DNA of 64,000 nucleotides, taken from the NCBI GenBank assembly GCA_964465735.1, contig CAYXKT010000002.1, positions 472 through 64,471 of the forward strand, read 5' to 3'. The position numbers were made by a program, and so were the translations under genes. The number at the start of each line of letters is the position of its first letter. The first letter of the stretch is position 1. The DNA comes from an uncultured bacterium. GTDB taxonomy: Bacteria; Auribacterota; Erginobacteria; Erginobacterales; Erginobacteraceae. The notes below the pieces were generated by a model. It had not been told where the DNA came from. It saw only the letters and a list, made by a program, of their open reading frames with translations, and ran no database searches. Below, piece by piece: positions 1-16,830 of the stretch.

Positions 1-66
1 AATAAACCGATTGCTTCGTCATCCCGCACCGCAGTGGCCTGGTTTTCCGGGTTGCGGTTCAGGCAC
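1..66 (+). repeat. Intergenic nested-hairpin repeat element, copy A (3' half, truncated by the window edge)
   Basis: GATTGCTTCGTC..CC.C...GCAGTGGCCTGGTTTTCCGGGTTGCGGTTCAGGCAC matches the 3' part of the elements at 2455-2565 and 4895-5004. Confidence 0.5.
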
Positions 67-129
67 TTTTTATCCCTGACTTGGCTTGCCCCTGTGTCCT
101 TCTTCGCCTCTGCGGTTCAATTTTCAGGA

Positions 130-2361
130 CTAATTCTCAGTGTTCTCTGTGGTCTTGTCGTTTTCCATAATATCTTTTTCTGTAACCGGAAGCGAGAGAC
201 GGAGGTTGGTAAGCCGGCGGGCCCGGGAACTGGGGACTCCTCCCCGGGAGTAGAACATTGTCTCCCCAAAACCTCCTTCCGGCCAGGGGGGAGCGCCAAT
301 AAAGACCCAGGCGCCCAGCGGCCAGCGACTGCCGACAAAGATCCTTCCTCCGGGCGCGGTAAATTCCCAGCGGGACCACTGATCGGGAGCATCCGCCCGA
401 AGCAGGGGTGACTCTCCAACCAGGCGGTCCGGAAGACCATCATCTTCAGTATCGGCATAAACCACGAACCGGAACGCCCCTTCCTCACCACCTCGGGCGT
501 GGGCCAGTTCAACCACCACACTGGCCCCCTTTTCCGGAGGCGGGATAACTTCCCAGACTCCGGAGTCGAAGTAGGTGGCGTGCTCCTCGCCCACGGCCCA
601 GAGCCCGGAATGGGAGGGAGCGAGAATCTTCCCCTCATCCATCCCTCGACCGGTCTCCGAATCGAGAACCTCGACAATCAAGGACTCCAGGGTCTGCCGT
701 TGGAAACGCTGATCCCAGCAGACCGGGTCATTGGCTCGGCGAGGAAGACGCCGACCGGCCCAATCAACAATGTCGTCGGCCAGCAACGGGCGAAGTTCGA
801 CGCGTTCCCGATTAATCTCCCTCAGGGGATAGCGGGAAGTAAGGTAGCGCAGCTCGGTGCTGAGGTTGGTATGCCAGCCAACCAGAAGGACATAATCCCC
901 GGGCCGGACATTGCCCCGGGAGTTCCGGGTATAACCTCGGATCGGGGTCTTCGCCCACCAGCCGACCTTGCGCAGTTCGCTGGAGTAAACTGTCCGCCCC
1001 GAGAGGTTATCCCGGATATATTCGGCCGAACGACGGATATCAGCGAAACTATCCCGCGACCAATAAAGAGCAAAACCGGTAAAGACCGTAGAGGCAAGCA
1101 GAGAGATAGCGATAACAATCCAGCCGGCCAAACGGAGAAACCGTTTCCGAAAAGAGACCAGAAAGTCGGCCCCGTAACCGGCCAGGGGGAGAGTGGCCGC
1201 GGCCAGCATATAGAGGTAGCGCGGGGTCCACCACTTGTTGACTACCAGGGTGTAGAAAACGGCGGCAAACAAATAGAGAAAGCAGACTGTCCAACCGAAC
1301 CGGAGGGGATGACGGCGGGAACGGAAGAGGGAGAGGATCAGTCCCAGTCCGGCCAGAACCGCCACCGGATAGACGAGGACATAGGGATAGGCCTTGAGAT
1401 AGTAACTAAGCCAGATCATCCAGCGGCCGGAGATCGAACGCATCGAGGTCCGCATACCTTCCTGGTACCAGGTACTCATTGCCAGGTGATGCTGCCAGAC
1501 ATAGAGAAATATATAGGGTCCGGCGGAGATCAGCAGCCCGAACAGGGCGAGCGGACGGCGGTACCACCATCCGGCCCTCCGGCCTGATCCGGGGGCAAGA
1601 TAGGAGATCACAAGCAGAACCAACCCCCAGATCGCGCCCAAAAAGAGCAGGCGGCTGATCAGCACCGGTCCGGGGAGAGTGACCGGAAAGAAACCGAGGA
1701 GGAAATCAAACGCGCAGACAGTGAGATTCTCCACCCCGGGGAGAAAGTGGAAGCCAAGGGCAAGGAGACCCCAACCGGACAATAAAATACTCAAAACCGG
1801 AAGGAGAGTCCGCTCCCGACGGGCAGTAAGGAGAAAATAGAGAAAGACGGCCACCACCGCCACCGGGACCAGGACCAGACCGGTCGGGTAAGTGAGAAGC
1901 GCCACCCCACCGGAGAAGACCCCGACCGCCAGCCACCAGGGAGAACGGATTTCAAAGGCACGGAAGATCCCATAGAAAAAGAGGAGAACAAAGAAAGAGT
2001 ACATCCCGTGGGGGAAGATCCGCAGCGACCAGCGGAAGATCAGGGGAGAAACTGTATAAAAGAGAATGGTTAGAAACGCCGCCCGCCGGTTATAGACCGC
2101 CCGAGCCAGTCCGGAGAGGGGAAAGACGGCCAGAGAGGCAAAGATAATCGAGACCAGACGGCCAGCCAGTTCAAGATCGCCGCCGAGGTGGTTGAGCGAT
2201 TTCAGGGCAAAAGGGTACGCGGGGAGAATGATTGTCCCCCGGATCCGTTCCAGCGCGGTCATATAGTCCACACTGTCGGTATAGGCCGCCGGATGCCAGT
2301 TGAGGAAGAGCAACCGGGCGACCAGATTAACCCCAAAAATCAGCAGTACCCACTTTCTCAT
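130..2361 (-). CDS. GT-C fold integral-membrane glycosyltransferase (ArnT/PMT-like, GT39/GT83-type) with a C-terminal periplasmic domain of about 140 aa
   Basis: 743 aa. The N-terminal two-thirds has more than 10 predicted TM helices with an ArnT/PMT-like layout. The C-terminal soluble domain is homologous to the C-termini of 2696..4774 and 5166..5879. ATG at 2361 in an intergenic context. Confidence 0.6.
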   Translation of the reverse strand: MRKWVLLIFGVNLVARLLFLNWHPAAYTDSVDYMTALERIRGTIILPAYPFALKSLNHLGGDLELAGRLVSIIFASLAVFPLSGLARAVYNRRAAFLTILFYTVSPLIFRWSLRIFPHGMYSFFVLLFFYGIFRAFEIRSPWWLAVGVFSGGVALLTYPTGLVLVPVAVVAVFLYFLLTARRERTLLPVLSILLSGWGLLALGFHFLPGVENLTVCAFDFLLGFFPVTLPGPVLISRLLFLGAIWGLVLLVISYLAPGSGRRAGWWYRRPLALFGLLISAGPYIFLYVWQHHLAMSTWYQEGMRTSMRSISGRWMIWLSYYLKAYPYVLVYPVAVLAGLGLILSLFRSRRHPLRFGWTVCFLYLFAAVFYTLVVNKWWTPRYLYMLAAATLPLAGYGADFLVSFRKRFLRLAGWIVIAISLLASTVFTGFALYWSRDSFADIRRSAEYIRDNLSGRTVYSSELRKVGWWAKTPIRGYTRNSRGNVRPGDYVLLVGWHTNLSTELRYLTSRYPLREINRERVELRPLLADDIVDWAGRRLPRRANDPVCWDQRFQRQTLESLIVEVLDSETGRGMDEGKILAPSHSGLWAVGEEHATYFDSGVWEVIPPPEKGASVVVELAHARGGEEGAFRFVVYADTEDDGLPDRLVGESPLLRADAPDQWSRWEFTAPGGRIFVGSRWPLGAWVFIGAPPWPEGGFGETMFYSRGGVPSSRARRLTNLRLSLPVTEKDIMENDKTTENTEN

Positions 2362-2454
2362 AACCGGTAATTCGGACTCCGGTCCGGAATCCTATCAAAG
2401 CATTTCGTTGGTTTTATTAACTAATGTCTGGACGTAAACCCGATATCACGGAGA

Positions 2455-2565
2455 GTCTGTCGTCGCAAGAAACGAAGTCACGGGGCAATCTCATCACAAA
2501 ATAAACAGATTGTTTCGTCGTCCCTCCTCGTAATGACCTGGTTTTTGAGATTTCCGTTCAGAACC
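2455..2565 (+). repeat. Intergenic nested-hairpin repeat element, copy B (full length)
   Basis: tctgtcGTCGCAAGaaACGAAGtca...TCTCATCACaaaATAAACAGATTGTTTCGTCGTCCCTCCTCGTAATGACCTGGTTTTT...CGTTCAGAACC. Inverted pairs CGCAAG/CTCGTAATGAC-type and ACGAAG/CTTCGT around a conserved loop of about 23 nt. Confidence 0.6.
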
Positions 2566-2695
2566 TAACTAAACTTACTCTTTGAAGCTGGTTAAAACCT
2601 TTTCCCACTTCTTCTCACCGTCACAATATCAGTTCGTCACCACCGGTTTCATCCTTTCATAAAACTTTTGACAGTACCCCCGCTAAGTTTGCCGG

Positions 2696-4774
2696 CTATC
2701 CCTCCTCCGGTTTTTCCCCGGGGGGAAGGATCTCGATAACCAGATTGGTGGAACGAGGGCCGGTGGAGAGAGTCGGAGGTCCGGAGGTGGAATAATACAT
2801 CGTCGGCGACAGATCCCGGTGGCCCCAGCCGGTCCGGTCAAAGAAGACCCGGGCGCCTTCATTCCAGGTATTGCCCACGAACAGCCTACCTTCCGGAGCG
2901 GGCAGAGTCCAGTAACTCCAGTCACCGGCCGAGCGGGCGGTGAGAAAAGATGACCTCCCCAGTTCCAGATCGGGGCGGCCGTCGTTATTCTTATCTCCAT
3001 AGGCCACGATAAAGAATCCACCTTCGTTGCCGGAAGCGGCGTGCTGGACCTTAACGGTGACTATATCTCCGGTTGAATATGGCTTGACCACCTCCCAGAC
3101 CTGGAGATTATGGCCGGGTGTAGTCCTCAGCTGGATATGCGGGGCCGGTACCCGCTCACCGCTGACCCGAAAGGCCCCCGCCCCGCTCAACTCCTTCAGC
3201 GTCGATTGGAGCTGGAGTTGAGAGATCAAGTTGAATATTCCCAGTGCCAGAAGACCAATCAGGGTTATCCAGACCGCCCTCATCATCCCCGGCGAGGATC
3301 CGGCCCCCGGTCCTCCAGGCAGATCGTCCCCCCGTTTCCTGCTGAAATTCATCATCACGACACCTCCGGTCAGCCAGATTAAGTACAGCGGCAGGAGACT
3401 GAGCTGTCCCCGCAAACCCGCCATCTGTCCCAGGTTGAAAGCGTTAAAAGAACTGGAGACGACGGAATTGCTCTGGAAGGTCGTCTCCGGGTTGATTGAA
3501 AGATAGCCCCCGAAAAAGGAGTGAAAGTAAAGATCCCGGAAAGGATGCCGGGCATACTCCTCGAAACGGACGGCGGTGGCGGTCAGAACTAAAAAGATCG
3601 AGACCGCCGCCAGAAGGGCCGAGATCCGCGGAAAGCGGACCACGAAAAAGAAGGCCAACAGCACCATATACGGCAGCATCTCCATCGCGTGCCGCGGACC
3701 AAATGCTTTTCCCCCATAGTAATAAGGATAGAGGGTATTGATAAAGAAATACCCCGAAATCAGGACTATCAGAATCGGCAAAAGGGACCGCGACCCTTTC
3801 TCTCGGGCCAGATAAAAACCGCCGGGGAAGAGCAGGATGAGAAAGGGAGAGAGATGAAAAAATCCGCGGAAAGGACCAAAGGAGGTCTGGTAGAGGGCCT
3901 CCATCAACTTCCGAGTCTGGAAGCCGAGGAGGGGTCCGTCCTTGTAGGCGCTATGGGCAGCGGCCCGCTTGTCGAAGTAGGCGATATACCAGGGGTTATG
4001 GAAAACCAGGTAGTTATATCCGATCAAGATGGCGGCCGGCAAAATCAGGCCGGCCAGAAACCAGCCGAAACGGAAAGTTCGGCTCCCGTTCCGGAAAAAC
4101 CCTCGAACCAGGCAATAGACCGAGAGCAGGGTGACGATAGCCGCCACGGGATACTCGGTCACCACCGCCCAGCCCCCGGCCAGTCCGGAGAGAAAGATAA
4201 AGAGCGATCCCCGGGGAGCGTCCGGCTCCAGAACCAGGTATTTCAGGAGGAGATAAAACGAGATCACGGTCAGAACCGAACTGACCATATGGCCGTAGAT
4301 CACGGTGGAATAGGCAAAAGCGGAGGTACCGAGAAAAAGGGCCAGAGTAGAGATCAACCTCGGGGCGATGGCTGAATGGAAGAGGCCGAGCAATCGGAAG
4401 AAGACCACCCCGCCTAAAGCGCAGGGCAGGCCGACGATCAGCACCCCCACCAGCCAGCAGGAGAAGAGATGGTAGAAATCCTCCGAGAAGAGACCGGTCA
4501 GGGTACCCTTCAGCCGGGAGATCAGATAGTAGGGGCCGACCCCGACCAGACTCATCCCCGGCGCCTTGTTGGGATAGTTCTTTCCCTCGACATTGACGAT
4601 ATCGTGGGTGGGAACCCGGACACCCCCGAAATGGAGCTGCCCCTGCTCCACCACTGCCCGCATCTGGCCCAGCCGAGCGTTCTGATTCGCCCCCCCGCCC
4701 TGATAGAAATAGGCGAAGCTGAAGAACAAGACGAAAAAGAGAGTTATCTCCAATTTATAATTTCGCAAAATCAA
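2696..4774 (-). CDS. GT-C fold integral-membrane glycosyltransferase (ArnT/PMT-like) with the shared C-terminal domain
   Basis: Multi-TM N-terminal region followed by the conserved C-terminal domain (VxVxHAAxG..GGFxIxAY.D...DG.PD...S.FLT...W). I trimmed the ORF-track start (4972) to the TTG at 4772-4774 (on the minus strand, GAGGA sits 5 nt upstream), because the longer N-terminus would be encoded by the intergenic repeat element at 4895-5004. Confidence 0.5.
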   Translation of the reverse strand: MILRNYKLEITLFFVLFFSFAYFYQGGGANQNARLGQMRAVVEQGQLHFGGVRVPTHDIVNVEGKNYPNKAPGMSLVGVGPYYLISRLKGTLTGLFSEDFYHLFSCWLVGVLIVGLPCALGGVVFFRLLGLFHSAIAPRLISTLALFLGTSAFAYSTVIYGHMVSSVLTVISFYLLLKYLVLEPDAPRGSLFIFLSGLAGGWAVVTEYPVAAIVTLLSVYCLVRGFFRNGSRTFRFGWFLAGLILPAAILIGYNYLVFHNPWYIAYFDKRAAAHSAYKDGPLLGFQTRKLMEALYQTSFGPFRGFFHLSPFLILLFPGGFYLAREKGSRSLLPILIVLISGYFFINTLYPYYYGGKAFGPRHAMEMLPYMVLLAFFFVVRFPRISALLAAVSIFLVLTATAVRFEEYARHPFRDLYFHSFFGGYLSINPETTFQSNSVVSSSFNAFNLGQMAGLRGQLSLLPLYLIWLTGGVVMMNFSRKRGDDLPGGPGAGSSPGMMRAVWITLIGLLALGIFNLISQLQLQSTLKELSGAGAFRVSGERVPAPHIQLRTTPGHNLQVWEVVKPYSTGDIVTVKVQHAASGNEGGFFIVAYGDKNNDGRPDLELGRSSFLTARSAGDWSYWTLPAPEGRLFVGNTWNEGARVFFDRTGWGHRDLSPTMYYSTSGPPTLSTGPRSTNLVIEILPPGEKPEEG

Positions 4775-4894
4775 GGTATCCTCAGCTTGACTTAAAGAAT
4801 GACTGAAAATACAATCAGTCAGTAGTGGCCTGAACCGCTCGTCAGCAAAAGAATATACTATAGCGACTGAACGAAAACCTAAAATCTCACAGGC

Positions 4895-5004
4895 TCTGTC
4901 ATTGCGAGGGACAAAGTGACGAAGCAGTCTCATCACCAGATAAACAGATTGCTTCGTCGTCCCTCCTCGCAATAACCTGGTTTTCGGGGTTTTCGTTCCG
5001 GCAC
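4895..5004 (+). repeat. Intergenic nested-hairpin repeat element, copy C (full length, best-conserved stems)
   Basis: TCTGTCATTGCGAGGGACaaagtGACGAAGCAgTCTCATCACcagATAAACAGATTGCTTCGTCGTCCCTCCTCGCAATAACCTGGTTTTCGGGGTTTTCGTTCCGGCAC. Stems CATTGCGAGGGAC/GTCCCTCCTCGCAAT and GACGAAGCA/TGCTTCGTC. Confidence 0.65.
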
Positions 5005-5165
5005 TACTATAGGTTCTACTCCAGCGGCTGTCTATCCTAACCCGCCGGATTTGAATAATATTTCATTGGTTCGGGAAAATACAGGTTGTGGTTTGTGGTG
5101 TAATCGATTAGAGATAAAACGGTTTTAAGAAGAACAAGTCGGCCAAGGGAGCACGCGAATTTAAT

Positions 5166-5879
5166 ATGAAAATATTCGACCGTAATTTCTGGGGGACAAT
5201 TTTGATCTGGGTGGGGGTGGTTATCTTCCTGGTAGTAATTTACGACATTATCCGGCCGGTCTTTCCCGGACACCCCCCCTACCCGATTATCCAGTCGATC
5301 CAAAACTTTTTCTCCCCCTCTCGGGGACCGAATAAACCACCGCCCGCTGCCAAAAAGGCCCGGGCACGCCGCCCGACGGTGGCGAAAATCCCGCCAAAGT
5401 TTGCCGGCGACGCGCGGATGATGACCGCCAATTCTTATTCTCCGGCGGGGCATTACTCACAGTGGGTCTGGGCGGTTAAACCGGACCGGCAAACTGAGGA
5501 CACGGTCCGGGTCGAGGTTGCCCACGCCGCCCCGGGAATGCCGGGGGGGTTTTCGATCATTGCTTACGCCGACACCATCGGTGACGGTTGGCCCGACCAG
5601 AAGGTGGCGGAATCGGAATTCCTCACCGGTGACCAGGCCGGCCAATGGTCGATCTTTAACTTCACCGCCGGGGAAGAACCTCTGTTCATCGGGTATTCCT
5701 GGGCGGAGGGCCAGGATACTGTCATCTTCCGAAGTAACGGGGGATGGCCTGAGAAAGATTTTCCCCTGGAAGACCGATTCTTTTACCTGATCGACGGACC
5801 TGGTTCCAAGTCGGCCGGGCCGGCCTATACCAATCTCCGGGTATCATTCTCCCGGCAATCAACCCAGGAGAATTCTTAA
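5166..5879 (+). CDS. Small signal-anchored protein carrying the same C-terminal domain as the two neighbouring GT-C enzymes
   Basis: 237 aa. One N-terminal TM helix (FWGTILIWVGVVIFLVVIY), a Pro/Ala/Lys-rich linker, then a domain of about 130 aa that aligns with the C-termini of 130..2361 and 2696..4774. Confidence 0.5.
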   Translation: MKIFDRNFWGTILIWVGVVIFLVVIYDIIRPVFPGHPPYPIIQSIQNFFSPSRGPNKPPPAAKKARARRPTVAKIPPKFAGDARMMTANSYSPAGHYSQWVWAVKPDRQTEDTVRVEVAHAAPGMPGGFSIIAYADTIGDGWPDQKVAESEFLTGDQAGQWSIFNFTAGEEPLFIGYSWAEGQDTVIFRSNGGWPEKDFPLEDRFFYLIDGPGSKSAGPAYTNLRVSFSRQSTQENS

Positions 5880-5880
5880 A

Positions 5881-6606
5881 TTGACGAATATATTCAGCAG
5901 GACTTTGATCGCTGTCGGCATCTTTGTCTCCGTGGGGGTTATCTGCCAAATCCTCTTCGAGCGCGCTGACCAGCCAGGCACGCCACGGCCCCGGATCGCC
6001 CCAGATCGACCACGGATAGAACCGCAGTCGGTGGAAAGCGGTGCCGCCCTGGAGAAGACCGCGAACTACCTGCGAAAAACCGCAACGCAGATAGTGTCGG
6101 GCTGGACCGAGACCGTGGACTTCTCCCACTCCGGCCACTATGATTCCTGAGACGGCAAAGTCCTATCCTGGTGGGAGTACAACGACCAGGACAAACAAAA
6201 GGTAATCTGGAAGTCGGCGCCCTGCCCGGAGAAGCGAACCACCACCCTGGTATTCAGCGGGGTCCTGGGGACTGCTGGAGGAGAAGCGAAACTTTGCGTC
6301 AACGGTCGCCCGGCTCTCTCTTTAAATACCGGGGTCGGACCGGCAACTGAAGAATGGGGAAGAGGAGACTACCACCTGAAGTTTTTCTCCATAGTCGTCA
6401 AACCAAACCAGGAACGGCTGGGGATCTTCGCTCTGAGCATACCGAAAGAAGATGTCACCTCCGGAGAGCCTATCACTCTGGAGGTAAGAGCGGAGGGGCT
6501 TTATAAGTCCGGTAACGGCAACAGATTTTTTCTGCTCAGTTCGATCCCCGAAATTTTAAAGAAACTGCCTCCAAAGAAGCAGGCCCTCGTCTCGTCCACC
6601 GTTCGA
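5881..6606 (+). CDS. Signal-anchored protein whose reading frame is interrupted by an in-frame TGA at 6148-6150 (readthrough, recoding, pseudogene or sequencing error)
   Basis: A TTG-initiated ORF 5881..6150 (89 aa, one TM) is followed in the same frame by 152 further sense codons ending at the TAA at 6604-6606. That stretch contains no ATG, GTG or TTG, so the downstream part has no start codon of its own. Confidence 0.35.
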
Positions 6607-6647
6607 TAACGGAAAGTTACCGGGAAAAACAAAAACTCCAAGATGAT

Positions 6648-8774
6648 ATGCCCTGGAATCCAACAGTCAGACTGATCTTCCTCTTCAGCGGGGTATTTTA
6701 TATCCTGATCGGGATCGGCTTGAAGGGTGGCTTCACTTTTCCCCGCTACCGGCAGCGCCGGATCGGCGGCCTGATCTGGACAATCACCGGGGGGGTGATC
6801 GTTTTTCTCGCCGCCGCCACCGCCGGAGCTGTCGGCTTCCCAGCCCAGCGGATGATGGGGCGCCTGGTTCTCCCGGCGATCAAGCTGGGGGAACTGCTTG
6901 CCGCCTGGGTCCCGCCGCATTCGGCTTCCATTACCGCCGAGGGGTTGACGCTGGTCATCCTGATCGCCGGCGGACTCCTCCTCGGGAAGAAGAAGACCGC
7001 CCGCCCCCTGATCCTGATCCTCTTCGCCGGCGGAGCGGCCCTGGCCGGAGGTTTCTTTCTCAGCCGTTACTCCCTGCCCTCGGCCTATCTCCTTTTCGGG
7101 TTGGCGGTTCTCTACGCCGCGATGAGCGTCCGAACCGGGGACAGCCGGCGGACCGGCAAAGAACCTTTTCTCTCCCCGACCGCCGCGATGCTGACCGTGT
7201 CGGCAATTATTCTCCTCGGCTTTATTCTGAGAACCTACGGACTGGGCGAGGTCTCCTATCGCTTTGATCACTACGAGGCCGATTATGGACGGGAAGCACT
7301 GAAAGTCCTGGCCGGACACCATAACGCCAATCTCTGGACTTCCACGATCTGGCGAGGCTTGGGGCACCTCAACTATTCCCCGGTTTACACTTACCATACC
7401 GCCCTCTTCTTTCAACTCTTCGGGGCCACCATCGTCTCCCTGAAGCTGGTCTCCGTGACCTGGGGGTTGGCGGCCCTGCTTTTGACCTACGCAATCGCCT
7501 CCACTCTCTTCGGGAGAAAGACCGCCCTGATTACCATCTTTTTCCTGGCCGTCTCCCCGCTGCATATAAATTACAGCCGTTTGGGCCTCCTCCTCGGCTC
7601 CACGTTGACAATCAGCCTGCTGATCGTCTTCCTGCTCCTGCGGGCCCTCTTGAAGGAGAAGGTGATCTATTATCTTCTTCTGGGGGTGGCGGCCGGATTC
7701 GCCGGATATTTCTACTCCCCGGCCAAGTACCCGGTCCTGCTGGCCGCGGTTCTGATGGCCGCCTACACGATCTTCAAGCGAAGATGGATTTTACGGAACT
7801 GGCCAGGGTTGATCGTCCTCGGGCTGACGGTGATCATCCTGATGACCGCGCTCAATATCCCGGCCCTGGACCTGATGGCGCCCCGCTTCGCCGGCTACGA
7901 ATCAGTCTGGCACCGGACGGCCGACCATCAATATTCTTCCCAGGCCAATTACCGGAGGGGGATCCCCCTGGTCTGGGAAAACTGGGTGAAACTGGTCCGA
8001 AGTTTCTTCCTGGAGAGAAACTTCAGCTACGACCCCTGGCCCCAAGGCAACCTCTACTTCAACCCGGTCATCCCCCCCCTGGTCCTGCTCGGGATCGCCA
8101 TCAGCCTGGCCCGAATCCGGAAGGCAAATTACCGACTGCTCCTCTTCCTCGCGGCGGCCTTTTTGGTCCCCAACCTCCTCTCCCGGCCGCCGGTAATGGT
8201 CCGACGGATGATGGTCTCCTGGCCTTTCCTCTATTGTCTGGCAGCGATCCCCTTAGCCGAGCTGATCGGGCAAGCCGGTCAACAGGCGGGGCGGGCGGCG
8301 GGGCGGACAGCGGGCGCGATCATTATCGGGGGCCTAATCCTGTTCGGGGCCTACAACACCACCATCTTCTTCCAGAGCCGCGAGCCGGCGGGGAGATGGG
8401 AGGAAGAACGCTTCTTCGACGAGTACGCCAAGAGCCTGATCGACGATTATTATCTCTTCATCGTCCCCATTCAGCGGGGGCTGAGCGAGGAGACAATCCG
8501 CTTCCTCCTCCACGAGAAGATCGAGGCCGGGGTGCGGGGCTACCGCTTTCTCCCCCCCCGGGAGGTTGAAGATTTGTCCCGGGAAGAAGTGCAAAAACAT
8601 CTCCCGGCCGCGGTCGTCGCCGCTTCGGGCACGGTTGCCCGGGCGGTTCTGGAAAAGACCGGGGAGAGACTGGGAAAAGACCGGATCGAGGAGTTCCGGG
8701 ACAAGTTCAACCGGCCCCGAGCCGTCACCATCTTCTTTGAAAGTCCCGGGGGCACACACCTGATTGTTGAATAA
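6648..8774 (+). CDS. GT-C fold integral-membrane glycosyltransferase (ArnT/PMT-like, GT39/GT83-type)
   Basis: 708 aa with many TM helices. The region RFDHYEADYG...GHHNANLW...YSPVYTY...AVSPLHINYSRLG is typical of the ArnT/PMT N-terminal catalytic loop and TM organisation. Soluble C-terminal region of about 150 aa. Confidence 0.6.
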   Translation: MPWNPTVRLIFLFSGVFYILIGIGLKGGFTFPRYRQRRIGGLIWTITGGVIVFLAAATAGAVGFPAQRMMGRLVLPAIKLGELLAAWVPPHSASITAEGLTLVILIAGGLLLGKKKTARPLILILFAGGAALAGGFFLSRYSLPSAYLLFGLAVLYAAMSVRTGDSRRTGKEPFLSPTAAMLTVSAIILLGFILRTYGLGEVSYRFDHYEADYGREALKVLAGHHNANLWTSTIWRGLGHLNYSPVYTYHTALFFQLFGATIVSLKLVSVTWGLAALLLTYAIASTLFGRKTALITIFFLAVSPLHINYSRLGLLLGSTLTISLLIVFLLLRALLKEKVIYYLLLGVAAGFAGYFYSPAKYPVLLAAVLMAAYTIFKRRWILRNWPGLIVLGLTVIILMTALNIPALDLMAPRFAGYESVWHRTADHQYSSQANYRRGIPLVWENWVKLVRSFFLERNFSYDPWPQGNLYFNPVIPPLVLLGIAISLARIRKANYRLLLFLAAAFLVPNLLSRPPVMVRRMMVSWPFLYCLAAIPLAELIGQAGQQAGRAAGRTAGAIIIGGLILFGAYNTTIFFQSREPAGRWEEERFFDEYAKSLIDDYYLFIVPIQRGLSEETIRFLLHEKIEAGVRGYRFLPPREVEDLSREEVQKHLPAAVVAASGTVARAVLEKTGERLGKDRIEEFRDKFNRPRAVTIFFESPGGTHLIVE

Positions 8775-9129
8775 ATTAACTGGCTATATCCGGATTTCCC
8801 AAAGCCTATTGGTAGCCTTAATCAATGCTGGAGGAGCGTTAGAGGCGGCTTTGAAAGTTCAGAGATAAACAGATTTTTGCTCAAAGTTAACATTCACAAC
8901 TCCTGATACGGGACATCGTTCTTCCCTCACAAAAGGGGAGATCGCCGATCAATCGCCAAAAGCAATTTCTGATCAATTCCCGAACAGCAACAGGTTACCT
9001 GCCGCCTTTTCCCGGGGAAAGTTCAATCTTCCGTGATGAATTCGAGCGGGCGGAAGCGAGAACCTTCCCGGGGAACTTGGGCCCGTCCGGTCGGCCTCCG
9101 GGGGATTATTGGGAAGCCGGAAGCTCCCG

Positions 9130-10314
9130 TTAAAATTCAAACGCCAGCTGGGCGGTGAACAAGTTTCGCTGGTCGTCGTTCTTGAACTCGCCGTAGAGAT
9201 ACTCAGCCGCCAGGGTGGTATTGGGGAAGATCCCCCAGGATATGCAGATCCCGCCCTGATTTTCCGGGAACCCCGGGAAATCGTTGGAGCCTTCATAGCG
9301 GAGGGCGGTCTCCCAGTTCCCGGAAAACTCCCAGGCCAACTCGATGTTCCAGGCCCGCGGCGCCTTGCCCTCGAGGTCGCTCTCCTCCCCTTCCGGAACG
9401 GGGATATCCTTAAACCTCTTCAACGCGCCCAGGTATTCGGCGCTGAGAGTCAACGAATCGAACTCAAAGATGAAATAGGCGCTGAGGCCGCCCAAGAACT
9501 CGTTGATCTCGCCCAGGGGAAGCATTTCAGCCAGGCCATCGCTATCGGCGATGTCGCTCAGATAGGAAACTCCGGTTGTCAGACCATTGACCGGAGTGAG
9601 ATCAAGGGAGGCTACCAGGTTGTTGATCCGGGAGCCTTGATCTACTTTTTGAATATCGCCCTTGAACGCGCCGACCGAGACGGCGAAGAGGTCGTCTTCC
9701 ATCCCGAGGAGAACCGCGGTCTCCCGCGTCTCGCCCAGCTCCAGGGTCAGGGGGGCGCTGATGAAGCGGCTCTCGAAAACGCCAAAGGGGACATAGAGCT
9801 TTCCGGCCGAGAGGTAATAGGGAAAATCCTCTTCCGCTCCCAGGGTGATGACCCCCTCATCGAGATCGATCGGTTCGGTGGAGTCTTCCTCCCAGAGCAG
9901 AAGGGCCCGGCCGCGGACGTATTTGATCACGTCGACGTCCAGTCCGAGCTCGAAGGTGGCCAGCGTAAGATCGCTGTTGTGCTCATACACCCCTCCGGCT
10001 TTCTTCAACATCTCGTAATTGGCCTCGATCTCGAGAAGTCCCGAAAGCATCACGCCGGGCCAGATCTCGATCCCCTCTTCGAGAAATTTCTTCCCGGCCA
10101 GGGTATCATAGAGCCGGGGCTTCTCTTTCGGTTCCGAGACCCCGGCGGCTTCCGACGGAACGGCAGGGACCCTTGACTCCAGGACTTCGATTCTCTCGGT
10201 GAGGTCACGGATGGCCGGGTCATCCTGCGCCTCAACCGCTGGGGTTGTCAGTACGGCCGCGGAAACCGCGCCAATCAATATTGAAAAAACTATTTTCATC
10301 CTTCTCATCGGCAT
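9130..10314 (-). CDS. Outer-membrane beta-barrel protein (porin-like)
   Basis: 394 aa. Signal peptide MPMRRMKIVFSILIGAVSAAVLTTPAVEA. Alternating amphipathic beta-strand pattern, rich in aromatic residues and Gly. C-terminus ...QLAFEF ends in Phe, the usual OMP beta-signal. Confidence 0.5.
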   Translation of the reverse strand: MPMRRMKIVFSILIGAVSAAVLTTPAVEAQDDPAIRDLTERIEVLESRVPAVPSEAAGVSEPKEKPRLYDTLAGKKFLEEGIEIWPGVMLSGLLEIEANYEMLKKAGGVYEHNSDLTLATFELGLDVDVIKYVRGRALLLWEEDSTEPIDLDEGVITLGAEEDFPYYLSAGKLYVPFGVFESRFISAPLTLELGETRETAVLLGMEDDLFAVSVGAFKGDIQKVDQGSRINNLVASLDLTPVNGLTTGVSYLSDIADSDGLAEMLPLGEINEFLGGLSAYFIFEFDSLTLSAEYLGALKRFKDIPVPEGEESDLEGKAPRAWNIELAWEFSGNWETALRYEGSNDFPGFPENQGGICISWGIFPNTTLAAEYLYGEFKNDDQRNLFTAQLAFEF

Positions 10315-10457
10315 TTCTCCTTTTTACAGCCTAATTTTATCGGTTTCGGGTGCTTCCCGCGTTTTACATTATTCTCATCTCCTTCCCTCGCAGTCCGGCA
10401 ACCGCAATTGATTATCTCTTTCAACCAACCTCGAAAAAATTTTCTGGAACGGACGGA

Positions 10458-10688
10458 TTACCCGATCCAGCGATACAAGACCGCTGCGGACGAACGGCAA
10501 CCATTCATACCGCAGCAACCGCAGGAGCCGCCGCGGCATTCGATCCTCTCCTTCTCCACCGACCCCTTACGGGTCAGCATCTCCATCATCTTCTCCAGCG
10601 CCGATTCCTCGATGCTGAAACGGATCGCGAGGTCGGAGAGGGAGACGGAATCCCGTTCCTTGATCAATGCCTTAATTTCGCTCAGCAT
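10458..10688 (-). CDS. feoC: FeoC-like ferrous-iron transport regulator
   Basis: 76 aa lying directly downstream of feoB (3-nt gap). Winged-helix-like N-terminus plus the Cys cluster CRGGSCGCCGMNGC, as in FeoC. Confidence 0.55.
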   Translation of the reverse strand: MLSEIKALIKERDSVSLSDLAIRFSIEESALEKMMEMLTRKGSVEKERIECRGGSCGCCGMNGCRSSAAVLYRWIG

Positions 10689-10691
10689 TGT

Positions 10692-13001
10692 TCAGCCCGT
10701 CTTCTTTTGGCTCTTTTTTATCATTCCCAGGACAAAGACGATCAGGATCGCCGCCACCATTCCGATCCAGAACAGGGATGTCCCCGGATGGAGGCCGAAC
10801 CGCGCCACCTGGTAGAAGAGGGTCGAGGTCAGCCAGGCCAGGCCCGAAAGGTAAAGGGCGCTGAAGAGCGTCCACTGCCAGTTCAGCTCCCGGTAGACGG
10901 CGGCGATGGCAGCCACGCAGGGCATATAGAGCAAAATCATCAGGAGATAGGCGTAGGCCCCCGCCCGGCCGTCGAACCGCCTCGTCAGGGCCGAGGGGGT
11001 CGAGGTTTCGACCTCCAGTCCCGCGGCGGCTTTATCCAAACTGCCGTATTCCTCAACTTCCGCCCCCAGCAGTCCGGAGACCGAGAAGGGCAGGGTCAGC
11101 TCCGCCAGCGCGACCGGGATTGTCGCGAACGACTCCCCGATTCCTCCCCAGAAGTCGAAATTTTCTCCTTCGCCGGCCGCCGCTTCATCCGGACCGGCGT
11201 CGAGCCGGGAGTAGAGCGCGTCGAGCGTCCCGATCACCGCTTCCTTGGCGAAGATCCCGGTGAAGATGCCGACCGCGGCCGGCCAGTTGGATTCCTTCAT
11301 ACCCATCGGCTGAAATATCGGGACGATCCCCTTCCCGATCGCGCTCAGGATCGAGTTCTCGCTGTCCTCATTCCCGAAGGAACCGTCCGGGCCGAGGGAG
11401 TTGAGAAAGTTCAGGACGATCACCACCAGGATGATGACTTTCCCGGCCCGGAGCATAAACGCCTTCAGCCGGTCCCAGGTATGAAACAGGATCCCCCGGA
11501 GGGCGGGGATATGATAGGGCGGAAGTTCCATCAGGAAGGCGGAGGGTTTCCCCTGTAAGACCGTCCGGTTGAGCAGAACCCCGGTCAGGACGGCGAGAAC
11601 GATCCCCGCCAGGTAGAGCGAGAGCACCACCCAGCCCCCGATCCCGGGGAAGAACGCGGCGGCGAAGAGCGCGTAGACCGGCATCCTCGCCCCGCAGGAC
11701 ATAAAGGGGTTCATCATAATCGTCATCACCCGGTCCTTTTCACTCTCCAGCGTCCGGGTGGCCATAATCGCCGGGACGTTGCAGCCGAAACCGATCAGCA
11801 TCGGGACGAAGGATTTTCCCGGCAGGCCGATCGCCCGCATCAGCCGGTCCATCACGAAGGCGGCCCGCGCCATATACCCGGAGTCCTCCAGAAGGGAGAG
11901 GCAGAGGAAGATGAAGAAGATCGGCGGGATGAAGGTGGCCACGGTCTGGATCCCCCCGCCGATACCCCCGGCCAGCAGGGTGACCAGGAACCCGGGCGCG
12001 CCGATTTTCTCCAGGAGATTTCCGAAGCCATCGACAAAGATGGTCCCGGCGAAGCCGTCAAAAAAATCTATGAAACAGCCGCCGAGGTTGATGGTGGCCC
12101 AAAAGGTGAAGTACATCGCCGCCAGGAAGATCGGGATCCCTAAAAATCGGTTCAGAACCACCCGGTCGATAACGTCGCTCACCGTTTTGCGGACAACGTC
12201 CTTGCGGTCCACCGCCTTGCGGCAGACCGCGCTGATAAATCCGTAGCGACTGTCGGCGATGACGATATCGGTGTCCTCCCCGTTAACAGCCTCGATCCTC
12301 TTCCGGAGGCCGGGGACTATTTCCCGAACCGCCGCCGGAACCGCGAACTTTCCGGGATCGATATCCCCCTCCAGCAGCTTGACCGCCAGCCAGCGGGGGT
12401 CAAACTCCCTCCCCGCCGGATCGGCCGGAAGCCGGGCGATGATCTCCGTTATCGCCTCCTCGACCTCGGGGGGGTAGTAGATCTCCACCGAGGAGACCGG
12501 CCGGTCTTTTAGGCCTCGGTTGACGGCCGATTTCAGTTCGTCGATCCCCTCCCGCCGGGAGGCGACTATGGGCACCACCGGGCAGCCCAGAAGCCCGGCC
12601 AGCTCGTCCACCTTGATCTTGAGGCGCTTGACCCGGGCCAGATCGACCATATTCAGGGCGATCACCATCGGCACCTTCATCCCGATCAGCTGGGTGGTCA
12701 GGTAGAGGTTCCGCTCCAGGTTGGAGGCGTCAACGATGTTGACGATCAGCTCCGGCCGGTCCTGGAGGATATAATCGCGGGCGATCTCCTCGTCGAGCGA
12801 CGAGGTCGAGAGAGAATAGATCCCCGGGAGATCGACGACCTCGATCTCTTGGCCGTCGCGGGAATAGTTGCCGCTCTTGCGCTCGACGGTCACCCCGGGC
12901 CAGTTGCCGACCCGCTGCTTGCCGCCGGTCAGCGCGTTGAAGAGCGTGGTCTTGCCGCAGTTGGGGTTGCCGGCGATACCGATTCTGTATTTTTTGCTCA
13001 T
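10692..13001 (-). CDS. feoB: Ferrous iron transporter FeoB
   Basis: 769 aa. N-terminal G-domain motifs GNPNCGKTTLFNALTG and DLPGIYSL, followed by the polytopic membrane domain. GGGAGG ribosome-binding site 9 nt upstream. 4-nt overlap with feoA. Confidence 0.95.
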   Translation of the reverse strand: MSKKYRIGIAGNPNCGKTTLFNALTGGKQRVGNWPGVTVERKSGNYSRDGQEIEVVDLPGIYSLSTSSLDEEIARDYILQDRPELIVNIVDASNLERNLYLTTQLIGMKVPMVIALNMVDLARVKRLKIKVDELAGLLGCPVVPIVASRREGIDELKSAVNRGLKDRPVSSVEIYYPPEVEEAITEIIARLPADPAGREFDPRWLAVKLLEGDIDPGKFAVPAAVREIVPGLRKRIEAVNGEDTDIVIADSRYGFISAVCRKAVDRKDVVRKTVSDVIDRVVLNRFLGIPIFLAAMYFTFWATINLGGCFIDFFDGFAGTIFVDGFGNLLEKIGAPGFLVTLLAGGIGGGIQTVATFIPPIFFIFLCLSLLEDSGYMARAAFVMDRLMRAIGLPGKSFVPMLIGFGCNVPAIMATRTLESEKDRVMTIMMNPFMSCGARMPVYALFAAAFFPGIGGWVVLSLYLAGIVLAVLTGVLLNRTVLQGKPSAFLMELPPYHIPALRGILFHTWDRLKAFMLRAGKVIILVVIVLNFLNSLGPDGSFGNEDSENSILSAIGKGIVPIFQPMGMKESNWPAAVGIFTGIFAKEAVIGTLDALYSRLDAGPDEAAAGEGENFDFWGGIGESFATIPVALAELTLPFSVSGLLGAEVEEYGSLDKAAAGLEVETSTPSALTRRFDGRAGAYAYLLMILLYMPCVAAIAAVYRELNWQWTLFSALYLSGLAWLTSTLFYQVARFGLHPGTSLFWIGMVAAILIVFVLGMIKKSQKKTG

Positions 13002-13246
13002 CCGTCCGAACCTCCCATCTTTTCGACCTGAACCACCCCGGCCTCCTCCTTGCGGAGGCTAAGGCGGTAATCCTTCAGCTCGATCTCCACCGGATCGCCC
13101 AGGGGGGCCACCCTGGTGACGGTGAATTCCGTCCCCTTGATCAACCCCATAGGCAGGAGCCGGGCCCGGTAGCCTTTCTCGCCCGGCGCCAGGGCCGTCA
13201 CCCGGGCCCGGTCTCCCGGTTTTAAATCACCCAATGTCAAAGGCAT
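12998..13246 (-). CDS. feoA: FeoA ferrous iron transport protein
   Basis: 82 aa SH3-like FeoA (LGDLKPGDRARV...RLLPMGLIKGTEFTVTRVAPLGDPVEIEL). ATGA overlap with feoB. GAGGAGG ribosome-binding site. Confidence 0.85.
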   Translation of the reverse strand: MPLTLGDLKPGDRARVTALAPGEKGYRARLLPMGLIKGTEFTVTRVAPLGDPVEIELKDYRLSLRKEEAGVVQVEKMGGSDG

Positions 13247-13263
13247 CGTATTCCTCCTCTTCT

Positions 13264-13290
13264 ATTATAATTAATTGATTATCTTTATCA
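13264..13290 (-). promoter_or_regulatory. Fur-box-like sequence upstream of feoA-feoB
   Basis: On the minus strand: TGATAAAGATAATCAATTAAT, about 15 of 19 matches to GATAATGATAATCATTATC. Lies 17-40 nt upstream of the feoA ATG (13246), in an AT-rich intergenic region with a GAGGAGG ribosome-binding site. Confidence 0.5.
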
Positions 13291-13312
13291 GTTGTTCCGG
13301 AAAAAAATTTTG

Positions 13313-13636
13313 TCAGCCCAGAACTGACTGATCCCGGGGAAAACCCCGTCTCTCCTCCCGGACCATAACCTTGTTCGCCTCTCCCCTGCCGATGGCCAGG
13401 CGGGTATCCTTCACTTCGATAACAATCGGACCGCTGCCGGAGTTCCTGATCACCCGTAACGGCTCGCCCGGAAGCAACCCGAGCGCGGTCAGCCGTTTCT
13501 TGAAATGCCATCCGCCCTCGAGAGCGGCCAGCGTGACAAGATCGTCCTCACGGGCAAAGGTGACCGGGACGGTATTCCCGCGCGCGCGGATAACGCGGCT
13601 ATTACGCCGGTGAAAAGCAGAATTTCGATAGATCAT
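13313..13636 (-). CDS. feoA: Second FeoA-domain protein
   Basis: 107 aa. FeoA-like core (LAALEGG...KKRLTALGLLPGEPLRVIRNSGSGPIVIEVKDTRLAIGRGEA) directly upstream of feoA/feoB. Confidence 0.7.
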   Translation of the reverse strand: MIYRNSAFHRRNSRVIRARGNTVPVTFAREDDLVTLAALEGGWHFKKRLTALGLLPGEPLRVIRNSGSGPIVIEVKDTRLAIGRGEANKVMVREERRGFPRDQSVLG

Positions 13637-13697
13637 TTGACTATGCTCCTGAGATTTTCATAACCCGAATTATTCATCATCACTTTAATTTATGGCG

Positions 13698-13765
13698 AAC
13701 AGATTAAATTGCTTCGTCGGCCAGAAAGCTTTCGGGCCTCCTCGCAATGATATGTATCATTGCGA
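13698..13765 (+). repeat. Repeat element copy D (partial, diverged) carrying the 11-bp-arm palindrome TCGCAATGATA-tg-TATCATTGCGA
   Basis: GAACAGATTAAATTGCTTCGTCGG....CCTCCTCGCAATGATATGTATCATTGCGA. About 105-130 nt upstream of the second feoA start (13636). Confidence 0.5.
13742..13765. promoter_or_regulatory. Fur-box-like palindrome (AATGATAtgTATCATT) upstream of the second feoA
   Basis: Perfect 11-bp inverted arms TCGCAATGATA/TATCATTGCGA separated by TG. The core resembles the Fur box half-sites AATGATA/TATCATT. Lies within repeat element copy D. Confidence 0.4.
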
Positions 13766-13940
13766 CCGCGATCACACCACGGGGGGAAACAATCTCTATA
13801 ATCTCTATCGACTTGCCCGACAATATTGTTTTTCGCCGATAATCCCGGTTGATGCATTGCGGTATTTAATTCCGTCGGCCCGGAATAAGGTCGAGGGGAT
13901 AATACTGCGATCGATATTCATTCTCAATCGATTTCCGAGT

Positions 13941-13965
13941 AAAAAAAATCCCGGCCGGCTCACTT
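13941..13965 (-). terminator. Possible weak intrinsic terminator downstream of fur
   Basis: The minus strand reads GAGCCGGCCGGGATTTTTTTT: a short GC palindrome CCGGCCGG followed by a T8 run directly after the fur stop (13960). Confidence 0.35.
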
Positions 13966-14388
13966 TCGGCACTCAGCACAGATCCCCCGTATCCCCAACC
14001 GGTGTTCCAGAGGCTGGAAATTGAATTTGTCGCAGACACTCTGCTGGAGCCGCTCAATCTCGTCATTCCTGAACTCATAGACTCTTCCGCACTTCACGCA
14101 AACCAGGTGATCGTGATGCTCGTGACCGTAGGTATGCTCGTAGGTGACGTTCCCCCGGCACATAACGGCCTCCTTGGCCATCCCGCTCTCGAGGAGCAGG
14201 GGGATGAACCGATAGATCGTCGGCATCGAGACCCTCTCCCCCACCGCCTTCAGCCGGTCAAAGAGATCCTCCACGGTGAAGTGGTGGTGAATCTCAAACA
14301 CTTCCCGCAGGAGAATCCTTCTCTCGGGGGTGAACTGCAATCCCCGCGACTTGAGAAAGGCGCCAAATTTATCTTCTGGGGCATCCAT
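13960..14388 (-). CDS. fur: Fur-family transcriptional regulator (ferric uptake regulator)
   Basis: 142 aa. DNA-binding helix region TPERRILLREVFEIHHHFTVEDLFDRL. Metal sites HTYGHEHHDHLVCVKCGRV and CAEC. Sits upstream of the feo genes. Confidence 0.85.
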   Translation of the reverse strand: MDAPEDKFGAFLKSRGLQFTPERRILLREVFEIHHHFTVEDLFDRLKAVGERVSMPTIYRFIPLLLESGMAKEAVMCRGNVTYEHTYGHEHHDHLVCVKCGRVYEFRNDEIERLQQSVCDKFNFQPLEHRLGIRGICAECRK

Positions 14389-14401
14389 CGTTTATAACTG
14401 T

Positions 14402-16819: not shown

Positions 16820-16830
16820 AACTTCTCTCC

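Follow-up and report, generated by a model that had tools for sequence, protein, structure and literature searches.

Arabinan, lipid A modifications, and protein glycans are among the major envelope glycans made by GT-C glycosyltransferases, and, to our knowledge, it is understood in only a few of these enzymes how the acceptor is held. In EmbC, the C-terminal CBM binds the acceptor glycan, and mutants in its Trp residues are impaired in chain extension (PMC3044687; PMC11127046). ORF12, the founding member of GT136, is an O-antigen ribofuranosyltransferase of Citrobacter youngae and part of an extracytoplasmic glycosylation system that combines GT2 and GT-C enzymes; its CBM, a β-rich, immunoglobulin-like periplasmic module located after the last transmembrane (TM) segment, binds the acceptor polysaccharide in its unmodified form and, under the conditions used, was dispensable (PMC11127046). 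BcsB, the single-anchor periplasmic partner of BcsA, contains carbohydrate-binding jelly-roll domains and is sometimes fused to its synthase in one polypeptide; its TM anchor is functionally required (PMC8892547).

The DNA stretch analyzed here (the window, 64 kb, from an uncultured member of Auribacterota) carries a glycan cluster in which GT2 genes and NDP-sugar enzymes are present and which comprises five GT-Cs, two GT2s, an epimerase, a Wzz/GNVR kinase, and a porin. Glycosyltransferases are not mentioned in the genome paper on Auribacterota. The features considered below are as follows.

130..2361, minus strand: protein A, GT-C glycosyltransferase, 743 aa, PMT_2 at residues 47-190
184..585, minus strand: shared domain, copy in A, residues ~593-726 (hmmsearch 158.6 bits, E 2.1e-48)
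2696..4774, minus strand: protein B, GT-C-fold membrane protein, 692 aa, TTG start, no Pfam model for the family
2723..3127, minus strand: shared domain, copy in B, residues ~550-684 (hmmsearch 172.5 bits, E 1.1e-52)
5166..5879, plus strand: protein C, small anchored protein, 237 aa, with a TM anchor (residues 11-29), a Pro/Arg-rich linker, and the shared domain
5439..5855, plus strand: shared domain, copy in C, residues ~92-230 (HMM envelope)
6648..8774, plus strand: protein D, PMT_2 GT-C, 708 aa, Pfam PMT_2 at 244-398
14594..16951: GT-C with an N-terminal extension and without a small partner
21417..23474, plus strand: GT-C with a C-terminal PA14 domain (Pfam PA14 at 542-677, E 6.8e-17; PMT_2, E 3.7e-8)

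As in EmbC (and also in AftD and in EmbA/B, which are among the fold matches of B), the module of A and B is predicted to be a β-sandwich at the extracytoplasmic C-terminus of a GT-C, the EmbC-type enzymes being dependent on polyprenyl-phosphate sugars. However, the two groups belong to different phyla and have no detectable sequence relationship (the PDB profile search was empty), and the module of the window, whose binding is a prediction, recurs on several neighboring proteins and, in addition, comes in a stand-alone anchored form. ORF12 is likewise a GT-C with a module after the last TM segment, and the window cluster also has GT2s beside its GT-Cs, but no sequence similarity is claimed: the ORF12 module is described as immunoglobulin-like, and no trans-acting copy has been described for it. 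BcsB exemplifies the fused-or-split logic that is proposed below, with C as a separate partner of D and the module fused in A and B. Unlike C, it is tail-anchored (through a C-terminal TM segment), much larger, and composed of about four domains; its partner is a GT2 processive synthase rather than a GT-C, and homology to C is not expected. Within the window itself, the GT-C at 21417..23474 resembles A and B in combining PMT_2 with a carbohydrate-binding β domain in the identical C-terminal position. This PA14 domain belongs to a different family, the shared domain having no PA14 match in Pfam, but its presence on a neighboring enzyme shows that GT-Cs of this cluster use glycan-binding appendages.

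A domain shared by three adjacent proteins

A previous sequence-only reading of this DNA described three open reading frames, encoding two GT-C enzymes and one small anchored protein, and proposed that their products share a conserved soluble domain. All three frames are present as described, and the motif string given for the domain was recovered from the alignment of A, B, and C. In pairwise BLASTP comparisons of the full-length proteins, a domain of ~135 aa with 37 to 43% identity is common to the C-termini of A and B and the body of C (A 602-729 versus B 559-688, 43% identity, E 2e-25; B 554-680 versus C 95-226, 42%, E 4e-25; A 595-734 versus C 94-236, 37%, E 2e-18), and the similarity is confined to these regions. 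Smith-Waterman alignments of the last 150 to 160 residues scored 197 to 251, compared to 31 to 33 ± 5 to 6 in 1,000 shuffles (z of 27 to 40). The observation is thereby confirmed. When all six frames of the window (64 kb) were scanned with the domain profile, exactly three copies were detected, those in A, B, and C. Identity is 44 to 88% within each paralogue type and 31 to 42% between the A, B, and C types, which form orthologous groups with variable loops that are kept within each type.

Chance similarity is refuted by the BLASTP E values, the shuffles, and the family search described below. The wider notion that the resemblance is a compositional or chance effect, or that the segment is an inert spacer, has practically no probability left: nothing was found in its favor beyond the fold being a common one, and against it stand the z values of 27 to 40, E values down to 1e-25, the 196 family representatives at E ≤ 1e-10, the orthologous conservation of each paralogue, and the high-confidence fold.

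Protein A matches PF13231 (PMT_2) with an E value of 1.3e-12 (48.6 bits versus a cutoff of 26.1) and, with 11 or more hydrophobic segments in the hydropathy profile, combines a multipass core with membership in a GT-C sequence family. Its layout is ~11 to 13 TM helices, a soluble region of ~160 aa, and the shared domain at the C-terminus; its orthologues are 731 to 739 aa long, with domain identity of 70 to 87%. Protein B has no Pfam match, and its NCBIfam match (LA_3751/LA_3752 putative glycosyltransferase, E 2.1e-15) is under the cutoff. Its assignment comes from the fold: the AF2 model (pLDDT 81.9) has GT-C structures at all ranks from 1 to 17 of a Foldseek search of the PDB, each with a probability of 1.00 (ArnT, EmbA/B, ALG12, DPY19, STT3, ALG9, Pmt4, AglB, and AftA). 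It contains 13 predicted TM helices, within the 7 to 13 typical of the GT-C fold, followed by the shared domain, and a structured first extracytoplasmic loop (EL1, residues 23-97) in which N30, D58, K70, and P72 are invariant. The identification of both proteins as GT-C enzymes thus holds, in A by family and in B by fold; they are predicted to use polyprenyl-phosphate-sugar donors and to act on the extracytoplasmic side.

The start of B is the TTG codon at 4774, which is preceded by a GAGGA Shine-Dalgarno sequence, and the orthologues (about 35, ~690 aa) begin likewise (MILRN...). A longer frame up to 4972 was rejected because it enters a repeat element and the orthologues begin at the position of TTG 4774. 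A role of this intergenic repeat as a regulatory RNA for the cluster was also rejected: related loci lack the repeat, and it folds no better than its shuffles. Rfam had no match in 1..10000.

Protein C has a single N-terminal anchor in the hydropathy scan and is therefore the stand-alone membrane-anchored form that had been described. In its orthologues (about 25, 225 to 240 aa), conservation of the anchor and juxtamembrane region equals that of the domain itself, with 26 of the first 46 residues invariant in 12 orthologues. In D, a multi-TM extension of ~240 aa precedes PMT_2, and the shared domain was not found by the six-frame profile scan or by Smith-Waterman comparison of the tail (z of -0.2 to 2.4); a diverged copy was accordingly rejected. 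The small protein encoded at 5881..6609 has no domain match and was rejected as a further carrier.

Topology, fold, and conserved residues

The placement of the domain at the periplasmic end of the GT-Cs, as originally suggested, agrees with two observations. The short K/R-rich loops of B all lie on one face of its 13-TM topology, and in a set of 175 family members, wherever an N-terminal hydrophobic segment or a last TM segment was predicted, the domain comes after it, a rule that also covers proteins with the kinase-TM-domain architecture. This survey was a crude hydropathy scan, in which about a third of the listed proteins, many of them fragments, had no detected segment. From these patterns, we infer that the domain is located on the extracytoplasmic side.

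The AlphaFold model of the domain of C is a high-confidence, nine-stranded β-sandwich, and the predicted fold is a common jelly-roll. Its neighbors in the PDB include the PHR and GOLD domains, and Foldseek also reports weak similarity to CBMs and weak matches to β-sandwich peptidases (eqolisins 1s2b and 2ifr). One loop of the model reads D136-T-I-G-D140-G-W-P-D144; the family-wide pattern is D48-x-(D/N/E)-x-D52-G53-x-P55-D56, with the profile positions D48, D52, G53, P55, and D56 conserved in 88 to 99% of 148 distant representatives. The loop is a predicted calcium site, and the domain would be stabilized by calcium. The hairpin G-G-F-x-I-V-A-Y-A-D-T-D-G-D-G-x-P-D-x-x-V-A-E-S matches the strand-DxDxDGxxD-strand motif of FG-GAP, with the DxDxDGxxD loop within a strand-loop-strand unit. 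This calcium-loop hairpin is what the domain has in common with FG-GAP and VCBS. Unlike these, it has a single hairpin within a nine-stranded sandwich and no repeated β-propeller blades; FG-GAP_3 scored 17 to 20 bits, below its cutoff of 26.9, and a 21-repeat FG-GAP protein was drawn into the family via profile positions 39-64 alone.

Conservation across the family is highest for His32 (100%), Ser62 (99%), Asp48 and Asp56 (98 to 99%), and Asn135 (95%), and the conserved polar residues are common to all family architectures. Such conservation is unusually strict for a passive binder and, along with the weak eqolisin matches, could indicate a small enzyme, e.g., an esterase- or lyase-like one that modifies glycans via the invariant His32, Ser62, and Asp residues, which we regard as very improbable.

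Breadth of the domain family

The sequence-only reading did not recognize the domain as a named one, in agreement with the searches of Pfam-A 2025, NCBIfam 20.0, and PDB sequences, in which it has no match. C hits no family at E ≤ 1 in either Pfam-A 2025 or NCBIfam 20.0, no named family covers the domain in A, B, or the 108 family members scanned, and PDB sequence searches with the domain profile, A, and B returned nothing meaningful. The suggestion that the domain is specific to this system did not survive: an exhaustive search yielded 677 cluster representatives at E ≤ 1e-3 (196 at E ≤ 1e-10), many with unrelated partners. Fusion partners include Ser/Thr kinases (with a TM segment and the domain extracellular), FGE-sulfatase, Transglut_core, Lectin_C, FecR, PASTA, and STN; tandem two-copy proteins (P0027-P0029) and many proteins without an assigned function are also found, the majority of the representatives being single-copy. 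The domain does occur on GT-Cs elsewhere, namely, the orthologues of A, an 882-aa protein of the related locus L003, and P0052 and P0053. Members with named taxa come from Auribacterota, Kiritimatiellia, and Planctomycetota, and a homologue search with the wide-family profile returned mostly known C orthologues plus one partial protein from a Bacteroidetes-labeled MAG. The source names seen are "hypothetical protein" or refer to the partner ("DUF4339 domain-containing protein" or "protein kinase domain-containing protein"), cluster look-ups having yielded names for two wide-family members, and no characterized member was found.

The diversity of the partners, the spread over these three taxa, and the polar residues common to all architectures could also be explained if the domain were a general module of PVC bacteria for envelope targeting or sensing that binds a common envelope component (e.g., a wall polymer or metal-bridged surface, not the own acceptor of the GT-C) and only localizes its partner. 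We consider this unlikely, since A and B, being integral to the membrane, need no localization signal. Besides, three to five differently diverged paralogue types per cluster suggest distinct specificities, and the fused-or-split pattern described below suggests that the domain takes part in the enzyme reaction.

Gene neighborhoods and the proposed role

The order A<-B<- ->C->D is conserved in Auribacterota, being found in the window and in the related loci L001, L002, L003, L005, and L007, and the copies of the domain reside on adjacent, co-conserved proteins (three in the window, four in L001, and five in L003). The C->D spacer is 5 to 15 nt in L001 and L003, and the gene for C', a small anchored protein of relatives, overlaps that for a 715/716-aa GT-C by 4 nt in L003 and L008. 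The C->D adjacency is lost in L006, and another small gene intervenes in the window and in L004. GT-Cs with the fused domain have PMT_2 near the N-terminus (residues 47-190 in A and 79-235 in the 882-aa protein of L003; also P0052 and P0053); in those without it, which are encoded directly behind a small anchored copy, PMT_2 lies at ~241-401 after an N-terminal extension. This fused-versus-split arrangement points to a physical partnership. The window GT-C at 14594..16951, which has an N-terminal extension but lacks a small partner, is evidence against it.

Alternatively, the domain could be a protein-protein interaction module, whose copies in the three proteins bind each other and, with D recruited by C, join the neighboring GT-Cs into a multienzyme complex. 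EmbA-EmbB and Pmt1-Pmt2 work as pairs, the multiple copies are always on adjacent co-conserved proteins, tandem two-copy proteins exist, and the PHR and GOLD neighbors of the jelly-roll are protein-binding modules. Nevertheless, such a role appears quite unlikely: most of the 677 representatives are single-copy with unrelated partners, which is more in keeping with ligand binding than with a dedicated oligomerization unit, and the A, B, and C types have diverged to 31 to 42% identity while keeping their variable loops within type.

Of the two roles offered by the sequence-only reading, nothing speaks for a carrier, and substrate recognition is the best reading, in view of the analogous CBMs in EmbC, AftD, and ORF12 and the weak fold similarity to CBMs. 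We give about even credence to the domain being an extracytoplasmic, calcium-stabilized jelly-roll that serves as a glycan-binding accessory module, acting in cis on A and B and in trans, via C, on D. Its task would be to keep the acceptor or the nascent glycan beside the periplasmic active sites of GT-Cs that use lipid-linked sugars; A and B would carry it at their periplasmic C-termini, and C would supply it to the domain-less GT-C encoded downstream, probably docking on D through the conserved transmembrane anchor in a putative C-D complex. Glycan binding is suggested by analogy, and it counts against it that the residues conserved throughout the family resemble structural or metal-binding ones more than a sugar-binding platform. 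Since the fusion partners in the wider family include non-glycan enzymes (kinases, FGE-sulfatase, and transglutaminase), the ligand may also be a general envelope component. The earlier caveat that the domain might prove to be a common fold with a trivial function came true in its first half; the second is argued against by the strict conservation, orthologous paralogue types, and fused-or-split GT-C pattern, which do not fit a filler.

An extension of this accessory-module reading, which is possible but rather doubtful, makes C and C' obligatory trans subunits of the domain-less GT-Cs in a periplasmic array that hands the polymer from one GT-C to another. The TM and juxtamembrane segment of C and C' (YD..RP.FP) would dock on the ~240-aa N-terminal multi-TM extension that only these domain-less GT-Cs have, and, together with the fused copies of A and B, the small proteins would provide calcium-dependent glycan-binding modules of different specificity that pass one growing envelope polymer along. 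We know of no description of such a split GT-C/CBM holoenzyme assembly line for GT-C enzymes.

Most likely, the domain represents a new family within a well-known kind of helper module, and because accessory CBMs on GT-Cs are already known, it introduces no new principle. What has been defined is a domain family that lacked annotation and comprises about 680 sequence clusters, mainly from uncultured bacteria of the PVC group; it has a clear structural model and a testable predicted calcium site and merits its own database entry. For Auribacterota, it gives a handle on an opaque, GT-C-rich glycan pathway.

Shared domain of three adjacent membrane proteins

The shared domain, a module of ~135 aa, is carried by the first three of four adjacent gene products:

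130..2361, minus strand: A, 743 aa
2696..4774, minus strand: B, 692 aa
5166..5879, plus strand: C, 237 aa
6648..8774, plus strand: D, 708 aa

When the full proteins were compared by BLASTP, alignment was confined to the last ~130 residues of A and B and to residues ~94-236 of C (A-B, 43% identity, E = 2e-25; A-C, 37%, E = 2e-18; B-C, 42%, E = 4e-25). The alignment has 33 invariant columns and recovers the motif of the sequence-only reading, which had claimed a domain common to three adjacent proteins; local alignment scores of 197 to 251, versus 31-33 ± 5-6 for 1,000 shuffles (z = 27 to 40), are significant and bear that claim out. The tail of D scored at chance level against the domain in the shuffle test, and a profile HMM search of the six-frame translation of the whole 64 kb found exactly three copies.

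The same reading had taken A and B for GT-C enzymes, correctly in both cases. A contains a PMT_2 domain above the Pfam threshold (residues 47-190) and, by hydropathy, at least 11 hydrophobic segments followed by a 311-aa soluble tail. B has no Pfam match, and its sole family signal is a sub-threshold one to the NCBIfam putative glycosyltransferases LA_3751/LA_3752; its homologs (~35 orthologs of ~690 aa and distant ~490-aa relatives without the C-terminal domain) carry no annotation. The AlphaFold model of B (pLDDT 81.9, resting on 28 sequences) was compared with the PDB using Foldseek, and the best 17 matches were all GT-C enzymes, each with a probability of 1.00 (ArnT, EmbA/B, ALG12, DPY19, STT3, ALG9, Pmt4, AglB, AftA, and Pmt1/2). 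The model helices, read against the sequence, give 13 TM segments, with the short K/R-rich loops (RGFFRNGSRTFR, REKGSRS, RFPR, and NFSRKRGDD) all on one face. Under the positive-inside rule and the known GT-C topology, the C-terminal domain and loop 23-97, with its invariant N30, D58, K70, and P72, would lie on the opposite, periplasmic side.

C consists of a single TM segment (11-29), a Pro/Arg-rich linker, and the shared domain. Among 12 orthologs (59-89% identity), the anchor and juxtamembrane segment are conserved as strongly as the domain, with 26 invariant positions among the first 46, and the linker is not conserved. A YD..RP.(F/L)P motif is common to C and C', a second small anchored protein with the domain that is found in relatives.

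The start codon of B is a TTG at 4774 with GAGGA just upstream, in agreement with the orthologs (MILRN...). A longer ORF, to 4972, was rejected because its 5' extension enters a repeat element and the orthologs match the TTG start. This MITE-like intergenic repeat (~145-160 nt) ends in 19-nt terminal inverted repeats (TAGTGYCTGAACGAAAACC ... GGTTTTCGTTCAGACACTA) and has four copies in the window, at ~78% identity:

~4850-5005, minus strand
~2410-2566, minus strand
1-67, minus strand, cut by the window end
~54040-54195, plus strand

The repeat accounts for the spurious extension of B and for the 334-nt gap between B and A (34 nt in the related locus L001). It is absent from eight related loci, has no Rfam match, and folds no better than its shuffles (z = +1.07).

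Predicted fold and calcium loop

The domain had been described as unnamed, and comparisons with Pfam and NCBIfam (no family at E ≤ 1) and with PDB sequences (no relative) agree. Its AlphaFold model, a nine-strand beta-sandwich, has no close structural relative. Weak fold matches are to CBM-like, non-catalytic domains in carbohydrate esterases of the SGNH type (9kqz, 7tog, and 7tok), many CBM families (4, 11, 15, 22, 62, and 86, and alginate- and porphyran-binding ones), PHR and GOLD domains, and phage capsid or tail jelly-rolls, which makes the modeled domain a jelly-roll sandwich of the type that serves binding modules.

In a set of 6 A-type, 38 B-type, 31 C-type, and 148 distant sequences, the following residues (model numbering) are conserved almost throughout: W14, H32, G36, G39, F41, D48, D52, G53, P55, D56, S62, W73, F78, G88, and N135. 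A small enzyme that uses the invariant His and Ser is a reading of low probability. The segment D48-x-x-x-D52-G-x-P-D56 between strands 3 and 4 conforms to the nine-residue calcium loop, DxDxDGxxD, that is typical of FG-GAP repeats, and the hairpin as a whole is similar to an FG-GAP unit. Profile positions 39-64 alone retrieved an FG-GAP protein with 21 repeats, and several family members have FG-GAP_3 matches below the threshold. These likenesses suggest that the domain binds calcium. The loops after strand 6 (positions ~92-112) differ between the A, B, and C types and are conserved inside each type.

Gene order and association with GT-C enzymes

The first ~30 kb of the window is a glycan-biosynthesis region that includes two GT2 genes, an NDP-sugar epimerase/dehydratase, a B12/radical-SAM enzyme, a BBP2 porin, a Wzz/GNVR tyrosine-kinase co-polymerase, and further GT-Cs:

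14594..16951, minus strand: PMT_2 GT-C, PMT_2 at 298-444
21417..23474, plus strand: a fourth GT-C (PMT_2), with a C-terminal carbohydrate-binding domain, PA14

The PA14-bearing enzyme stands beside a GT2 and the B12/radical-SAM gene, an arrangement kept in L001 and L005. The divergent order A<-B<- ->C->D is conserved in L001/L002, L003, L005, and L007; L004 begins at C. Further copies are found in L001 (a 587-aa protein), L003 (an 882-aa PMT_2 protein and C'), and L008 (C'). The types form orthologous groups, with 70-87% (A), 61-88% (B), and 44-71% (C) identity within types and 31-42% between them; the duplications are therefore old, and each copy has been maintained.

Gene content downstream of D varies. 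L001 (12859..17487) has three unannotated genes (587, 493, and 429 aa), the first encoding its fourth domain copy; instead, the window (8775..18800) has another PMT_2 GT-C, a GT2, an epimerase, and two ORFs:

9130..10314: porin-like ORF
10692..13001: FeoB-like ORF, named from its translation

The far end of the window holds a very long ORF:

56051..63901, minus strand: 2,616 aa

The association of the domain with GT-Cs follows a consistent pattern, either fused or adjacent. The fused GT-Cs are devoid of an N-terminal multi-TM extension and have PMT_2 near the N terminus (47-190 in A, 79-235 in the 882-aa protein, and 93-250 and 81-206 in the family members P0052 and P0053). In the domain-less GT-Cs, whose genes immediately follow that of a small anchored copy, PMT_2 lies behind a ~240-aa multi-TM extension (at 244-398/401 in D and 241-396 in the 715/716-aa partners of C'). 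The domain is never present in D-type proteins of related loci; the C-D spacer is 5 nt (L001) or 15 nt (L003), and both L003 and L008 show a 4-nt overlap between C' and its GT-C. Within the window, extensions of ~240-300 aa are seen in 6648..8774 (plus) and 14594..16951 (minus). There are three exceptions: GT-C 14594..16951 has the extension but no small partner, the C-like gene of L006 lies in a different sugar-modification context beside a transposase, and in the window and L004 a further small gene lies between C and D:

5881..6609, plus strand: TM segment, Pro/Arg-rich linker, ~150-aa beta-rich domain

The beta-rich domain is distinct from the shared one and is without a Pfam match. An in-frame TGA interrupts the gene at 6148-6150 (GHYDS*DGKV); at that position the L004 ortholog (1056..1826, 256 aa, from "Candidatus Erginobacter occultus") has Trp/TGG. 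A nonsense mutation, an error in sequencing, or pseudogene status could account for the stop. L001-L003 lack this gene, and there C is followed directly by D. Fused and adjacent copies might also be pictured as a homo- or heterotypic assembly module, which we consider improbable.

Distribution and proposed role

A word-indexed search returned 26 relatives, nearly all of them C orthologs, the remainder being one B-type and one A-type fragment. Among 1.84 billion cluster representatives, scanned exhaustively with HMMER, 677 matched at E ≤ 1e-3; 196 of these reached E ≤ 1e-10, and 34 reached E ≤ 1e-30. The following architectures were seen:

stand-alone anchored proteins
tandem doublets, such as the two-copy proteins P0027-P0029 and P0034
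PMT_2 GT-Cs
multi-pass proteins without a Pfam match, several of B type
Ser/Thr kinase, TM segment, shared domain, and 3-keto-disaccharide-hydrolase-like domain
fusions with FGE-sulfatase, Transglut_core, Lectin_C, FecR, PASTA, STN, or GYF_2
secreted or anchored proteins of ~380-420 aa (P0085-P0175), a large group in which the domain, at ~240-385, follows an N-terminal region of ~220 aa without a Pfam match

Where taxon names are available, they are "Ca. Erginobacter occultus" (of "Ca. Auribacterota") and "PVC group bacterium" for C orthologs, Auribacterota for a B fragment, and Kiritimatiellia and Planctomycetota for other members. Given this range of architectures and taxa, the domain is not specific to this system, contrary to what had been suggested.

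Wherever a crude hydropathy scan found an N-terminal hydrophobic segment or a last TM segment (none was found in about one-third of the proteins listed, many of which are fragments), the domain follows it, and the kinases carry it on the far side of the TM segment, which supports an extracytoplasmic location across the family. The kinase and other fusions would also suit a general envelope-targeting or sensor module, a reading that we regard as unlikely.

The best-supported reading is an extracytoplasmic, calcium-stabilized binding module that would assist GT-C enzymes in cis, when fused, or in trans, as a separate protein. Of the earlier proposal of a recognition or carrier module, periplasmic recognition holds up and "carrier" does not. 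The acceptor or the nascent glycan is the most likely ligand, a view that draws on the fold class, on the PA14 domain that a sister GT-C has in the same position, on the presence of several differently diverged copies in a single pathway, and on direct precedent. Acceptor binding and chain extension are lost in Trp mutants of the EmbC C-terminal domain, a lectin-like CBM (PMC3044687). ORF12, a GT-C enzyme (GT136), binds unmodified O-antigen through its beta-rich C-terminal domain, and EmbA/B/C and AftD have been named as further CBM-bearing cases (PMC11127046). The closest working analog of the stand-alone form is BcsB, a periplasmic protein with an anchor, which is required for catalysis, and with jelly-rolls that bind carbohydrate; BcsB is sometimes fused to its synthase (PMC8892547). 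For the shared-domain family itself, we infer glycan binding, calcium binding, and a C-D complex.

That a GT-C can bear a CBM-like appendage is a known principle. What is new is an unnamed sequence family of ~680 clusters, a predicted FG-GAP-like calcium hairpin inside a jelly-roll, and a systematic fused-or-adjacent arrangement with GT-Cs that includes small anchored copies.
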